A stretch of 64,000 bases of DNA from Candidatus Aenigmatarchaeota archaeon (GTDB taxonomy: Archaea > Aenigmatarchaeota > Aenigmatarchaeia > CG10238-14 > SpSt-28), in NCBI GenBank assembly GCA_038997165.1, contig JAWBAK010000001.1, positions 372,595 to 436,594 on the forward strand. The letters run 5' to 3'. Made by a program: the position numbers and the translations under genes. The notes under the pieces are model-generated. The model worked only from the letters and a program-made list of their open reading frames with translations, did no database searches and was not told where the DNA came from. This document shows, in pieces, positions 2,095 through 25,163 of the stretch (the stretch's first letter is position 1; each line of letters begins with the position of its first letter).

Positions 2095-2243
2095 GCCGGG
2101 GTCGCCTAGTGGACATGGCGGCGGACTTGAGTGATAGATTGGCGTGAAACTGATAAGAGATATAAAAAATGATGTGGGTGTCGAAATAAGAAAGAAATCC
2201 GCTGGGCTCTAAGCCCGCGTGGGTTCGAATCCCACCCCCGGCG
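2095..2243 (+). tRNA. tRNA-Ser(TGA) with 65-nt intron at 37/38 (2132-2196)
   Basis: GCGGA-CT TGA G[intron]A-TCCGC; long variable arm GGGCTCTAAGCCC; G73. Confidence 0.93.
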
Positions 2244-17869: not shown

Positions 17870-18955
17870 TTAAAAATACTTTAAATATTCAATTAATCTT
17901 CTTTTTTCTTTCTTTATATCTAAATAATTTTCGAAAATTTCATTTTTAATTATATCAAAACATTCTTGTAAAACTTCTAAAAATTCTCTACCTTCTCTTA
18001 TTGTGACAAATCTATTCTTATAATCACTAAAGATTAAATGAACAGTATAAATATCTCTATGTTTTTCTATATGTAATTTCAAAAATCCTCGATTAAATAT
18101 TTTTCTTATTTTTTTAATAAAATTCTTTATATAGAAGTCAACGTAATCAGAATAATATTTCTTTATATTCTCTTTTCCAATAATTATTACATTTATTTTT
18201 TCTTTTCTCTCTTTTATTAAAACTTTTAATAAATCTTTTTTAGTTATTATTCCTTGTAAATTTTCATTAACAACACAAGAAATTTTATAATAAAACATTT
18301 TTTTAATTATATTAGAAATTTTTTCATCACTAGAATATGTTATAACATTTTTAGTTGCAATTGATATTATAGGATTTTCAAAGATTTTAAATTTTTTTCC
18401 TATTAGTTCTCCTAATGTTGTCTTTTCTTTAAATTCCTTTAGAATAAAATCTGTTATATCTTTAGATGAAACTATTCCAGCAAGTTTTTTATTTTCTATT
18501 AATGGAATATGAGAAATATTATATTTTGCCATATATTTTATCGCTTTATAAATTGGTTCTTTCGATTGTAAAATAATTATATTTTTTGTTTCAATCTCTT
18601 CTGCTTTAACATTTCCAAATTTTTCTTTTATTATTTCTAAAAGCGAATCGATCTTAATAATTCCTTTAACTTTATTTTCTTTGTCTAATAATGCAGCTAA
18701 ATAACAATCATTTTCTATCATTCTTTTAGCAATTTCAATTTCATTAATTTCATAAACTTTACAATCTCTCTTTTTAACTTTTTTCAATTTTTCTTTTAAA
18801 TTTTTTTCAGTAATTAAATCTCTTAGTCTTACTATTCCTTTATATTTATTTTCTTCATCTGTAACTACTATTTCTCTTAGATCTAGATCTTTAATCAATT
18901 TTAAAGCTTCTCCTATTGTCTTATTTTCATCTATTGTAATTGCTTCTGAAATCAT
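17870..18955 (-). CDS. Tandem CBS-domain protein with probable C-terminal HPF/RaiA-like domain
   Basis: Four CBS repeats (e.g. ISHIPLIENKKLAGIVSSKDI) plus a roughly 95-aa beta-alpha-beta-beta-beta-alpha-patterned tail. Confidence 0.75.
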   Translation of the reverse strand: MISEAITIDENKTIGEALKLIKDLDLREIVVTDEENKYKGIVRLRDLITEKNLKEKLKKVKKRDCKVYEINEIEIAKRMIENDCYLAALLDKENKVKGIIKIDSLLEIIKEKFGNVKAEEIETKNIIILQSKEPIYKAIKYMAKYNISHIPLIENKKLAGIVSSKDITDFILKEFKEKTTLGELIGKKFKIFENPIISIATKNVITYSSDEKISNIIKKMFYYKISCVVNENLQGIITKKDLLKVLIKERKEKINVIIIGKENIKKYYSDYVDFYIKNFIKKIRKIFNRGFLKLHIEKHRDIYTVHLIFSDYKNRFVTIREGREFLEVLQECFDIIKNEIFENYLDIKKEKRRLIEYLKYF

Positions 18956-19077
18956 CTTGCCCTTACTCTTATAATTTTTGAAGGTCTAATTTTTTCAAAA
19001 ATTCTACCACCACAATTTAAACAAACTAATCTATCTAATTTATCATAAACTCTTTTGCAATTAATACATCTGTACAT
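18952..19077 (-). CDS. rpoP: DNA-directed RNA polymerase subunit P (Rpo12), not in the ORF track
   Basis: MYRCINCKRVYDKLDRLVCLNCGGRIFEKIRPSKIIRVRAR; Zn ribbon; conserved position after rpl37ae. Confidence 0.93.
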   Translation of the reverse strand: MYRCINCKRVYDKLDRLVCLNCGGRIFEKIRPSKIIRVRAR

Positions 19078-19078
19078 A

Positions 19079-19303
19079 TTATTTAATTTTTACTCCAGGA
19101 GGTAAATATGCTGAAGATGCTACTTTTTTATTACATTTTTTGCAATACCATATACCTGTTGAAATTCTTTTTAACTTTTTAAAACCACAACTTGGACATT
19201 TATGGAATTTTCTTTGAATAATTTCTATTTCATCGATTTTTTCTCTTAATTTCATTCCATATCTTGCACCAAATCTTCCACTAGGTCCAACTTTTCTTAC
19301 CAT
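19079..19303 (-). CDS. rpl37ae: 50S ribosomal protein eL43 (L37ae)
   Basis: GRFGARYG, CPSC...TGIWYCKKC. Confidence 0.96.
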   Translation of the reverse strand: MVRKVGPSGRFGARYGMKLREKIDEIEIIQRKFHKCPSCGFKKLKRISTGIWYCKKCNKKVASSAYLPPGVKIK

Positions 19304-19489
19304 AGAGAATATATATTTTAATAAAAATTAATATATTTTTGAGTTATCATTTTGAGTTGTTTGTAGAAGAACTACGTCATCATTTTTATTTAAATCAATT
19401 ACTTAAAAATGTTAGAACTCCTAATTTTAACTTTAAAAAATTTCAAAATTCTATTTTTAGTGTTGAATTGCTAGCGATTTATAAATTGA

Positions 19490-19616
19490 TGCGGGGGGTG
19501 GGATTTGAACCCACGACGGCTCTACGCCATCGGGTTTCTTATCATTTATTCAAAGCTTAAGATTTTATATCTTTATCTTAAGCCCGACGCCCTTGGCCAG
19601 GCTAGGCGACCCCCGC
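19490..19616 (-). tRNA. tRNA-Leu(TAA) with 41-nt intron (19536-19576)
   Basis: TCGGG-CT TAA G[intron]A-CCCGA; long variable arm; A73. Confidence 0.93.
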
Positions 19617-19659
19617 TTATAATTTAAATTACATCAAATTAATTTAAATTAATTTAATT

Positions 19660-21069
19660 TTAAGCTTGATCTTGAATATACTTTTCTCCTCTTTTTAATT
19701 TTTCAAAAGCTTTTGTTATTTCTTTTCCTAAATATAAGGCATGATCATATAAACTAAAAAAACTTCCGCCTTTTAAGGAATTGTATATTTCCCAAAAATC
19801 TTTACTTTCGATTTTAAAATCTATTAAAGAATTATCTGGGGTTCTATGTTCTAAAACTATTTTATCATTCTCTTGATAAATTAAAAATAAACCTTTTGGA
19901 TCTTCTACAAATTCTTTCATTTTAAATGAATATTTGTTCAATATTTCTCTTACTAAATTCCAATCATGTTTATAAATATGTGCACTTGTAGAAATTGTTG
20001 TTATTGTTCCAATTTCAAAATTTGATTTAGTTTCTTTATTTATTTCATTAACGATATATTCTGCTAATTTTATTTGTGCTACAATATTTACTGGCCACGC
20101 TTTAACCATATCATTACTTCTAATCCAAACAGTATGATTATAATAATTTTCTGTTATTATTCCTTGAATACCTATTATGCATGGTGGATTTGAAGAATTT
20201 TGATCTATTAAATGATCCCAAGAAATAATTAAAGCTCTTCTTGAATAAGGAGCTTTAGATAATTTATCAATTAAATATTTAACTTGATTTTTTCCAAATC
20301 TATGTTCAAAAATTCTTTCTCCATATGTATATTCTACACTTTCTAATTTTTTTGGATATAGAACTTCATTAATGTGCCTTTCAAAATCTTCTCTTTTCAA
20401 AAATTCAAAAAATTCTTCTTCAATTTTATATTCTTTACCATATAGACCTATAGTAATCATTAAATTTAAAAATTCTTTTTGTGGTTCTTCGTATTCTGAA
20501 AATTTTATACTTCCAAATTTCATTATTAAATCTAAAATTTTTATCCATGCTCTAAAAATACTTGTATCATATATAAAGCTACCGCTTAATGGAATTGGCC
20601 AAGAAGTTAATTCTACTTTTTCTTCAACTATTATATCAATTTTTTCTCTAACTTTTTTTGCATTTATTTTAAAATTTTTTTCTATTTCTTCTTCGAGTTT
20701 TTTAATATTATTTCTTTTAAATTCTTCTCTTAAATCAATAATTTTAACTGTATTTAAAATATTTTCAATTTTATTTATTGGAAAAACTATTTTATAATCT
20801 TTAAAATTTTTGTTTTTAAAAACATCGATTAAAGCTTTTCCACTCAAAGATAAATCAGCACCGTAAATTATTAAAGTATCTATTTTTGGAAATTGTGCTA
20901 ATGTTTCTAAAATAAAATTAATTCCGTAAGTTGTATAAGTAGTTCCAATAATTCCAATTTTACTTCTTATTTTCTCTTGTAGTTGATTTAAAATTATTTC
21001 TTTTTTTGACCATAGAGTTGATATAGCAATATTACTATTTTCATTTAAGATTATTATATCTTTTTTCAT
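19660..21069 (-). CDS. thyA: Thymidylate synthase (ThyA) fused to an N-terminal MtrA-like and a C-terminal DUF4346-like domain
   Basis: TYGERI, SRRA, PPCI, RSND and SAHIY core; N-terminal TLWS...GADLSLSG; C-terminal DPKG...HALYLGKE...YIQD. Confidence 0.85.
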   Translation of the reverse strand: MKKDIIILNENSNIAISTLWSKKEIILNQLQEKIRSKIGIIGTTYTTYGINFILETLAQFPKIDTLIIYGADLSLSGKALIDVFKNKNFKDYKIVFPINKIENILNTVKIIDLREEFKRNNIKKLEEEIEKNFKINAKKVREKIDIIVEEKVELTSWPIPLSGSFIYDTSIFRAWIKILDLIMKFGSIKFSEYEEPQKEFLNLMITIGLYGKEYKIEEEFFEFLKREDFERHINEVLYPKKLESVEYTYGERIFEHRFGKNQVKYLIDKLSKAPYSRRALIISWDHLIDQNSSNPPCIIGIQGIITENYYNHTVWIRSNDMVKAWPVNIVAQIKLAEYIVNEINKETKSNFEIGTITTISTSAHIYKHDWNLVREILNKYSFKMKEFVEDPKGLFLIYQENDKIVLEHRTPDNSLIDFKIESKDFWEIYNSLKGGSFFSLYDHALYLGKEITKAFEKLKRGEKYIQDQA

Positions 21070-21105
21070 ATGTTTTTATTTGTTTGAATTAATAAATAGT
21101 TATAA

Positions 21106-22257
21106 ATGATTGAAATTGCATTAGTCGGAAAGCCAAACTCTGGAAAATCTACATTTTTTAAAGCAGCAACTCTAATGGATGTTAAAATTTCAAATATTCC
21201 TTTTACAACATTAAAACCAAACAAAGGAATTGCTTACGTATCAACTCAATGTGTTTGTAAAGAATTTAACGTTAAGTGTAATCCACAAGATGGATTTTGC
21301 ATAGATGGATTAAGATTTGTTCCAATAGTTCTTTGGGATGTTCCAGGATTAATTCCAGAAGCTCATAAAGGAAAAGGTTTAGGAATAGAATTTTTATCAG
21401 CTATAAATCATGTAGATGGAATTGTTTATATAATTGATATAAGTGGTAAAACTGATTTAGAAGGAAAAGAGATAGAATTTTTAAATCCAATAGAAGAAGT
21501 AAAATTTCTTATAAATGAATTGGTTCAATGGTATAAACAAAATATACAAAAACACATTCCTAAATTTTTTAAAGATAAAAAAGAATTAATAGATGTTTTA
21601 TCTCAAAAACTTAGTGGATTAAAAATTAAAAGGGAACATTTAGAAAAACATATTGATAAAATAGATGATTTAAATAATTTTTCTAAAGCGCTTTTGTTTG
21701 AAAGTAAAAAAATGATTATTGCTGCAAATAAAATTGATGAAAAAAATTCTGAAAAAAATTTAAAAGAATTAAAAGAATTTTTAGAGAAAGAAAATATTAA
21801 TATAAAAGTTGTTGAATGTAGTGCATTAAGTGAATTAATTTTAAGGACTTTAGATCAAAAAGGAATAATAAAATACAATTTTAAAGATTTTGAAATTTTA
21901 AAGAAAAATGAATTAAGTAATGAACAAATAAACGCATTAGAAAAAATTAGAGAATTGTTAAAAAAATATAATGGAAGTTTTATATTGAATGTTTTAAATA
22001 CTTTAGTTTTTGATGTTATGCAATATAAAGTTGTTTTTCCTGTTGAAAATGAAAATAAATTAAGCGATAAAAAGGGAAATATTTTACCAAATGCAATTTT
22101 ATTAGAAAAGGATGCAAAAACAATAGATTTAGCAGAAAAAATTCATTCTGAAATAGCTAAAAATTTCTTATATGCAATAGAGGTTAAAAGTAGAAAAAGA
22201 TTAGGTAAAGATTATATTTTAAATCATAGAGATATAATAAAAATATATCATGCATAG
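21106..22257 (+). CDS. ychF: YchF/Obg-family ATPase/GTPase with TGS domain
   Basis: GKPNSGKST, PFTT, DVPG, NKID, C-terminal TGS. Confidence 0.9.
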   Translation: MIEIALVGKPNSGKSTFFKAATLMDVKISNIPFTTLKPNKGIAYVSTQCVCKEFNVKCNPQDGFCIDGLRFVPIVLWDVPGLIPEAHKGKGLGIEFLSAINHVDGIVYIIDISGKTDLEGKEIEFLNPIEEVKFLINELVQWYKQNIQKHIPKFFKDKKELIDVLSQKLSGLKIKREHLEKHIDKIDDLNNFSKALLFESKKMIIAANKIDEKNSEKNLKELKEFLEKENINIKVVECSALSELILRTLDQKGIIKYNFKDFEILKKNELSNEQINALEKIRELLKKYNGSFILNVLNTLVFDVMQYKVVFPVENENKLSDKKGNILPNAILLEKDAKTIDLAEKIHSEIAKNFLYAIEVKSRKRLGKDYILNHRDIIKIYHA

Positions 22258-23684: not shown

Positions 23685-23824
23685 GCCGGGGTCGCCTAGC
23701 GGAAATGGCGCCGGCCTCGAGTTAAATGATAAGCTCTGGGGTAGCTGAAAGATAATGATGATTTTGTTATAAGAGAAAGCCGGTGGGCTCTAAGCCCGCG
23801 TGGGTTCAAATCCCACCCCCGGCG
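23685..23824 (+). tRNA. tRNA-Ser(CGA) with 56-nt intron (23722-23777)
   Basis: CCGGC-CT CGA G[intron]A-GCCGG; long variable arm; G73. Confidence 0.93.
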
Positions 23825-25064: not shown

Positions 25065-25163
25065 TGGGGCCGCTGGGATTTGAACCCAGGTTAACGGGTT
25101 TCCTCATTTTATCGGTGCTCCATTTCTGGAGCCCGCCGTCCTACCTGGCTAGACTACGGCCCC
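25065..25163 (-). tRNA. tRNA-Trp(CCA) with 26-nt intron (25100-25125)
   Basis: GCGGG-CT CCA G[intron]A-CCCGT. Confidence 0.93.

Follow-up and report, generated by a model that had tools for sequence, protein, structure and literature searches.

We asked whether the short intron of a tRNA-Leu(UAA) gene encodes a guide RNA that directs ribose methylation to the wobble nucleotide, U34, of the very tRNA that it interrupts. The gene lies in the window, by which we mean the whole 64,000-nucleotide stretch of DNA that was analysed. The genome of the window measures 652 kb in four contigs, has 24% G+C and includes an archaeal SRP RNA, and the DNA runs that contain the tRNA-Leu(UAA) locus are hot-spring metagenomes, with no RNA run listed for window 18000-21500. 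The Rfam tRNA model RF00005 covers window positions 19490-19616 on the minus strand with 43.9 bits. ARAGORN in intron mode reported the same interval as tRNA-Leu(taa), i(39,41), with an intron of 41 nt, and a default ARAGORN run returned no call for tRNA-Leu(UAA) at 19490-19616. This is the sole UAA-anticodon gene detected genome-wide. The original prediction had placed the intron of tRNA-Leu(UAA) at 19536..19576, in agreement with the intron mode of ARAGORN and with our parse of the anticodon arm, and the minus-strand intron string that it gave was identical to the one obtained when we re-read the minus strand. The gene and the intron are made up of the following parts.

19490..19616, minus strand: tRNA-Leu(UAA) gene with intron (Rfam RF00005, ARAGORN intron mode)
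19577..19587, minus strand: 5' half of the anticodon arm, nt 27-37 (sequence reading and arm parse)
19580, minus strand: U34, with the anticodon UAA at 19580-19578 and G37 at 19577
19584-19577, minus strand: target strand, G30 to G37
19536..19576, minus strand: intron, 41 nt, at the canonical 37/38 site between G37 (19577) and A38 (19535) (ARAGORN and arm parse)
19564..19576, minus strand: 5' spacer of the intron, 13 nt, the first two nt of which pair with the guide (comparison with congeners)
19554..19563, minus strand: guide (antisense) element AUCUUAAGCU, 10 bp with G30 to intron nt 2 (register analysis)
19550..19553, minus strand: D' box variant UUGA (box covariation; the same variant in a stand-alone sRNA)
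19546..19549, minus strand: closing loop AUAA of the kink-loop, 4 nt (sequence reading)
19539..19545, minus strand: C' box variant AUGAUAA (box covariation)
19490..19535, minus strand: 3' exon, A38 to the discriminator base (Rfam, ARAGORN)

Read 5' to 3', the intron consists of the 13-nt spacer, AUCUUAAGCU, UUGA, AUAA, AUGAUAA and GAA. AUCUUAAGCU forms 10 contiguous pairs with G30 to G37 and the first two intron nucleotides, with one G.U at G30. The complementarity originally claimed for this stretch is real, and it is one pair longer than the nine claimed, because it takes in intron nt 2. A19558, the fifth guide base upstream of UUGA, stands opposite U34 (19580), exactly as had been predicted, and the antisense elements of archaeal box C/D guides have their fifth base facing the target nucleotide in the same way. 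When registers 31-38 of the Leu(UAA) arm were scanned, a helix of 10 bp was found at 34 alone, with 0-5 bp at the other registers; the intron has one guide only, and the scan found none aimed at nt 39. In 20,000 mononucleotide shuffles of the intron, an in-register helix of at least 10 bp adjoining N[U/C]GA never occurred. Formation of the guide helix breaks the two lowest pairs of the anticodon stem. The loop sequence CUUAAG is a palindrome, and a direct repeat of the loop would therefore also appear complementary. The complementarity goes 2 nt past the palindrome at both ends, however, and a direct-repeat origin is for that reason insufficient.

AUGAUAA (19545-19539) follows UUGA past the four nucleotides AUAA, which is where the C-like box had been placed. 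Both of the boxes described are thus present, and what had to be revised was their type: the order guide-D'-loop-C' makes them a D'/C' kink-loop and not a C...D pair. Both are degenerate in Leu(UAA) (UUGA versus CUGA; UGAUAA versus UGAUGA). The 41-nt intron has one box set where archaeal guides have both C/D and C'/D', separated by about 12 nt. Lacking this bipartite architecture, it does not fully belong to the box C/D family. Rfam run at a permissive threshold matched the intron to the C/D family sR52 at chance level only (11.5 bits, E 8.6). The intron folded alone showed no significant structure (z = -0.02), and a 5-bp hairpin seen in that fold was discarded, being missing in congeners with shorter spacers. 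In the congeners L002, L003 and L004 the spacer is 13, 9 or 5 nt long by indels, and guide, D' box, loop, C' box and tail are all kept.

A BLAST search of the Leu(UAA) gene against 60 relatives, together with a second fetch, retrieved Leu(UAA) and Leu(CAA) genes from many genomes. These genes have the same layout, and many of them carry the canonical CUGA and UGAUGA. From them we built an alignment (A1) of 45 distinct arms, admitting only those with 6 or more in-register pairs and an intron no longer than 45 nt. In the 8-pair guide helix of A1, 94.2% of cells were paired versus 17-64% with the partners slid by 1-3 columns, a percentage that is inflated by the selection for in-register pairing, so that the weight rests on two-sided changes. 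Five of the eight pairs vary on both sides. The pair 34:k5 is C-G in 26 arms and U-A in 19, the pair 31:k2 is G-C in 40, A-U in 4 and C-G in 1, and not one unpaired cell occurs across nt 31-36. These substitutions indicate that the guide covaries with the anticodon.

The register was also checked without presupposing it, in 42 distinct intron-bearing Leu(UAA/CAA) genes that had been reached by BLAST of the gene and not by motif. The longest Watson-Crick helix beside a D'-like box and UGA fell uniquely in register 34 in 39 of the 42. Two of the three exceptions were artefacts of the filter, which rejected a UGA directly after D', and the third had UAGA as D'. A looser version of the test (any NNGA, G.U allowed) had put 27 of the 42 at register 34; it was noisy because the CAA guide itself contains UUGA, and it was replaced by the Watson-Crick version. 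In three of the relatives' tRNA-Leu genes (L028, L031, L048) there is an extra intron in the anticodon stem or elsewhere, besides the guide-bearing intron at 37/38.

The layout is shared by other tRNAs of the same genome. Fifteen tRNAs have a canonical 37/38 intron, and seven of these introns, in Leu(UAA), Leu(CAA), Gln(UUG), Glu(UUC), Lys(UUU), Trp(CCA) and a CAU tRNA resembling elongator Met, consist of a spacer, an antisense stretch, N[U/C]GA, 3-6 nt, a UGA-type box and a short tail ending in AA. In each of the seven, counting upstream from the D'-like box, base five stands opposite nt 34. Two of them are as follows.

25100..25125, minus strand: tRNA-Trp(CCA) intron, 26 nt; guide UGGAGCA, D' CCGA, C' UGAGG, aimed at C34
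49517..49545, plus strand: intron of the CAU tRNA (elongator-Met-like), 29 nt; guide AUGAGCU, D' UUGA, C' UGAUAA, aimed at C34

The guide layout is absent from the short introns of Asp, a CGC tRNA, Cys, Thr(UGU) and Ile(UAU). The last of these, a UAU (Ile-type) tRNA outside the window (C1:544646-544744, minus strand), has a 25-nt intron without guide; a UAU isoleucine tRNA is unusual in archaea, where a modified CAU is mostly used instead. The introns of Ser(UGA), Ser(CGA) and Tyr are longer (56-70 nt) and have fuller box sets, none aimed at nt 34. The tRNA-Ser(UGA) gene (window 2095-2243, plus strand) has a 65-nt intron at about 2131-2196 with the C/D-like elements GUGAUAG, CUGA and AUGAUGU, and this intron does not aim at its own nt 34. 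The tRNA-Ser(CGA) gene (window 23685-23824, plus strand) has a 56-nt intron at about 23722-23777 with AAUGAUAA, CUGA and AUGAUGA boxes, which looks like a double-guide sRNA. The tRNA-Tyr gene, outside the window (C2:11128-11269, plus strand), has a 70-nt intron in which a GC-rich hairpin is followed by AAUGAUAAGAUGAU, with no in-register guide for nt 34.

We then examined how widely such introns occur, with a covariance model (R1) built from A1 and a match threshold of E <= 0.001. On its own genome R1 found exactly the seven introns, plus one weak match in Ser(UGA) (E = 0.34). The census gave the following counts.

Order of the window's genome: 110 of 118 genomes, with 1-9 matches each
Even sample of the phylum (all listed as one class): 97 of 151 genomes
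Phylum of a Desulfurococcaceae MAG: 1 of 151 genomes
Phylum of a Thermoplasmata MAG: 0 of 151 genomes
Phylum of a Geoglobus MAG: 0 of 151 genomes

The lone match outside the phylum was a tRNA-Leu(UAA) whose 20-nt intron lacks both a guide and a D' box. Parsing of all loci, 60 newly fetched R1 matches included, yielded 123 distinct candidates in which 6 or more pairs were in register. Requiring a host anticodon among the seven and no fewer than 3 G/C in the 5' half of the stem left 115 and dropped 5 AT-rich non-tRNA matches and 3 apparently genuine arms with AT-rich stems; 4 more, in which a second intron had upset the parse, were dropped to leave 111. The real tRNAs in the parsed candidate set were limited to those seven anticodons. 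Because the R1 census and the set of 111 introns were selected with the register built in, they are no independent test of it. A collection-wide scan with a pattern of the Leu(UAA) layout returned at least 120 stretches, was swamped by chance matches in bacteria and on its own says little on distribution; among the matches listed were 12 archaeal-labelled loci, 5 of them in real tRNAs (four from Candidatus Aenigmatarchaeota and one from an 'uncultured archaeon'). The other 7 lay outside tRNAs and were rejected (MAGs of Geoglobus, Desulfurococcaceae, Desulfurococcales, Nitrososphaeria and Thermoplasmata, and two further archaeal ones). Taken together, the genome and the census point to one-motif guide introns as a phylum-wide family and not a special case of Leu(UAA).

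The two boxes were compared across the 111 introns, with D' defined as the four bases that follow the guide and C' as the final UGA in the intron plus the next two bases. In 103 of the 111, nucleotide 1 of D' has a pairing partner in the second base beyond this UGA, against 91.7 +/- 1.6 with shuffled partners, which is a high baseline, UGA-type words being common at 24% G+C; 0 of 5000 shuffles reached 103. A C at nt 1 of D' is matched by G in 15 of 18 introns, and a U there by A in 86 of 89. At nt 2 of D', C has G as partner in 5 of 5, and U is faced by U (47), A (43), G (14) or C (1). The combination CUGA/AG occurs in four host tRNA types, UCGA/GA in three and CCGA/GG in two, and this recurrence across host types implies repeated events. 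We take the pattern to be that of the non-canonical stem of a kink-turn, namely G.A, A.G, then U.U or a pair, then a pair. For UUGA and UGAUAA of Leu(UAA) we propose sheared G19543.A and A19542.G pairs, followed by U19541.U and by A19540-U with nt 1 of D'. Archaeal box C/D guides have a C-type and a D-type box with tandem G.A pairs, and here UUGA, AUGAUAA and the covariation of the flanking positions follow the same plan. The two boxes covary as a kink-loop, and with its one kink motif the intron would be a half-mer. In none of the 111 introns does the spacer contain a second C or D box.

The genome encodes fibrillarin (269 bits; C1:130593-131249), Nop5 (155 bits; region of C1:131270-131890) and L7Ae (106 bits; C1:230491-230766), all above the Pfam cut-offs. 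It also encodes a splicing endonuclease, as one 398-residue ORF with two catalytic-type domains. The ORF lies outside the window at C2:3278-3769 on the minus strand, with two endonuclease-domain matches, and presumably specifies a fused multi-unit enzyme, as in other ultrasmall archaea. A strict pattern for double-guide sRNAs matched two loci in the genome and none in the reversed sequence.

C2:17980-18029, minus strand: canonical double-guide C/D sRNA; D' guide with a 10-nt pairing to the 16S rRNA gene, C1:490970
C1:263694-263743, plus strand: canonical double-guide C/D sRNA; D' guide with a 10-nt pairing to the 16S rRNA gene, C1:490717

The 16S rRNA target site at C1:490970 lies inside C1:490232-491710. 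The sRNA at C2:17980-18029 has UUGA as D' and UGAUAA as C', which are the same variants as in the Leu(UAA) intron, and its D guide is complementary to pre-tRNA-Ser(UGA) over the stretch A31 to intron nt 3, which puts the fifth base opposite U34. It seems, on this pairing, that a conventional guide in this organism is also aimed at the wobble base of an unspliced precursor. As to protein-only 2'-O-methylases, an FtsJ-like ORF barely above the cut-off (27.4 bits) could be one, and a SpoU match was below the cut-off (19.6 bits). We also considered that Um34 might replace xm5U-type wobble chemistry in a reduced genome, and rejected this because Elp3 is present (571 bits).

The guide helix has to share the anticodon arm with the splicing motif. 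In the canonical bulge-helix-bulge (BHB), the central helix joins nt 32-35 to intron bases n-5 to n-2, and the 3' splice site lies in a three-base bulge. In the Leu(UAA) arm the corresponding elements are the following.

19538..19541, minus strand: UAAG, 3' strand of the 4-bp central BHB helix, which pairs with C32-A35 (splicing-motif fold)
19535..19537, minus strand: AA/A, 3-nt bulge with the 3' splice site between 19536 and 19535 (splicing-motif fold; bulge geometry as in the canonical motif)

All four pairs of the central helix, C32-A35 with UAAG, can form, and a 37/38 intron able to fold into the BHB as well is a feature of cis guides of the pre-tRNA-Trp type. At least 3 of the 4 central pairs are possible in 91 of the 111 introns. 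The outer helix is weak: 64 of the 111 have only 0-1 pair there. The BHB strand overlaps the core of C' by at least 1 nt in 90 of the 111 introns and by 3 nt in Leu(UAA), and the guide conformer encloses the 5' splice site in its helix. For the Leu(UAA) arm we calculated -10.4 kcal/mol for the guide helix alone, -11.4 kcal/mol for the minimum and -8.8 kcal/mol for the best BHB-constrained fold. Since the C' box overlaps the strand that the splicing motif requires, the guide and splicing conformers would exclude each other, and the folding model gives them similar stability. The loop that connects target and guide is never shorter than 3 nt and is 3-5 nt long in 79 of the 111 introns. The guide helices range from 6 to 12 bp and are 6-8 bp in 69 of the 111, with 6-7 bp in some relatives. 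Both the loop lengths and the helix sizes fit an intramolecular hairpin.

We consider it highly probable that the Leu(UAA) intron is a box-dependent guide for methylation of nt 34, acting most likely in cis on the precursor. The original prediction of an intron-encoded Nm34 guide is borne out to the extent that the register, the two covariations, the three sRNP proteins and the conservation all fit it. In the unspliced pre-tRNA, the antisense stretch would pair with nt 30-37 and the first two intron bases, and UUGA (D') and AUGAUAA (C') would fold together as a kink-loop. L7Ae would bind the kink-loop, Nop5-fibrillarin would dock, and fibrillarin would methylate the 2'-OH of U34 opposite the fifth guide base, giving a Um34-type wobble nucleotide on the intron's own precursor. 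The arm would then have to refold to the bulge-helix-bulge before the endonuclease could cut. Methylation would precede splicing, because the 5' splice site is buried in the guide helix and the C' box uses bases of the BHB. A further possibility, which we put forward tentatively and think rather less likely than not to be right in full, is that a single-kink-loop particle acts strictly in cis on the hairpin-closed duplex as a quality-control switch, such that a precursor with an unmodified wobble nucleotide could not be spliced.

The same RNP might instead work in trans, with the excised (probably circularised) intron or a second pre-tRNA guiding Um34 on another pre-tRNA or on mature tRNA-Leu(UAA), and with two half-mers bridged by a Nop5 dimer into a two-site particle. 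In vitro work on pre-tRNA-Trp favours action in trans, in the parts of those reports used here (PMC2584109, PMC7994747). Coupling two half-mers would help, moreover, as hemi-complexes are reported to lose site specificity, and the spliced tRNA would keep 9 of the 10 pairs, intron nt 1 and nt 38 being the same base, A. The helices of the relatives are, however, often too short at 6-8 bp to be anything but weak as intermolecular duplexes in a hot-spring organism, intron bases take part in the pairing in many relatives, and a connecting loop that never falls below 3 nt and is mostly 3-5 nt is what selection for an intramolecular hairpin would be expected to leave. Action in trans is on balance unlikely.

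Less probable again, to a degree that we give it little weight, is a structural or chaperone device without methylation, in which the helix and an L7Ae-bound kink-loop shape the precursor (protecting the anticodon loop or timing splicing) and fibrillarin is unused. The burial of the 5' splice site by the guide conformer, the overlap of C' with the BHB strand in most introns and a guide conformer at least as stable as the BHB would all suit such a device. It leaves unexplained, however, why the spacing of helix and D' is fixed with the fifth base always facing nt 34, why the hosts are limited to seven anticodons with C34 or U34, and why a genuine double-guide sRNA of this genome is directed to nt 34 of a different pre-tRNA. 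The likeness might also have arisen by chance in an AT-rich intron, or be the remnant of a duplicated palindromic anticodon loop; the self-complementary CUUAAG and the frequent UGA words would favour this, but we regard it as refuted by the shuffles, by complementarity that runs beyond the palindrome, by the matching guides of the CAA, CCA, CAU, UUG, UUC and UUU hosts, whose loops are not palindromic, and by the compensatory changes in A1 and the order-wide conservation in the census.

A guide for nt 34 that acts in cis would matter in several ways. RNA-guided ribose methylation is thought to require a bipartite guide with two kink motifs, and here an archaeal phylum appears to keep one-motif guides of about 20 functional nt in the introns of seven tRNA species, with the wobble register exact. 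If functional, they would be minimal natural guides; they would mean that tethering a guide to its target can substitute for the second motif, and they would give many short tRNA introns of DPANN archaea a role and a reason for their retention. Should the quality-control switch also be true, there would be a selective reason for introns in exactly those tRNAs that read purine-ending split-box codons, and the guide would be the smallest known for an RNA-guided methyltransferase. The host set (Leu-UUR, Gln, Glu, Lys, Trp, Met) overlaps the tRNAs whose wobble ribose is methylated by TrmL and Trm7 in bacteria and eukaryotes, and this overlap, if right, would indicate a conserved decoding need met by different machinery.

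The target itself has precedents. In Pyrococcus, according to the sections of the report drawn on here, four C/D sRNAs are predicted for nt 34 of Leu(CAA), Leu(UAA), Met and Trp, and only the Trp one is intronic (PMC7994747), so that nt 34 makes biological sense as a target. Four of the seven hosts found here (Leu-UAA, Leu-CAA, Met and Trp) are this Pyrococcus set, with the same target nucleotide and tRNA species; the Pyrococcus trans sRNAs are separate genes with two kink motifs, whereas here the guide is in the target's own intron and has one kink-loop. Um34 and related nucleosides are described in thermophilic archaea, and a Sulfolobus sRNA is predicted for U34 of Gln(UUG), in the portions of PMC7668247 consulted. 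The original prediction had called tRNA-Leu not the textbook host for intronic guides. As a host Leu(UAA) is one of seven, with a nt 34 that was already a predicted target; what remains unusual is the intronic, minimal form. A full-text search of the published literature found no one-motif intronic guide described for tRNA-Leu or DPANN.

The closest counterpart is the euryarchaeal pre-tRNA-Trp intron (Haloferax volcanii; sR50 of Pyrococcus), as the available excerpts describe it. Like the Leu(UAA) intron it sits at the 37/38 site and has a D' guide to its own nt 34, its guide and BHB conformers are alternative, and there methylation precedes splicing because the pairing includes the intron (PMC2584109, PMC7994747). 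That intron, however, is about 100 nt long, has the full C, D', C' and D boxes and targets both 34 and 39, whereas the Leu(UAA) intron has 41 nt (22-44 nt in relatives), guide-D'-loop-C' only and one target. By this analogy the Leu(UAA) intron would work like the D' half of the tRNA-Trp intron. Pre-tRNA-Trp is called 'unique' in carrying boxes and the Met guide 'always exonic' in the passages of PMC2584109 at hand, and the predicted guides of this lineage contradict both statements as they stand there.

Nanoarchaeum equitans, also a DPANN archaeon, has a stable C/D-like RNA in the 66-nt intron of its elongator tRNA-Met (Randau 2012, PMC3491384). It is like the introns described here in belonging to a non-Trp tRNA and in having one C-like and one D box, a likeness drawn without regard to the order of boxes and guide; it differs in its length and in a GC hairpin, and the passages on it give no target, register or family across tRNAs. 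Synthetic half-mer C/D RNPs resemble the introns in having one kink motif and one guide. Hardin and Batey (2006) report that the single-motif hemi-complex was active in vitro and lost site specificity, which needs both motifs (PMC1635284). The natural introns, in contrast, keep a strict N+5 register, and by analogy with the synthetic particles this suggests that tethering in cis, or dimerisation, replaces the role of the second motif.
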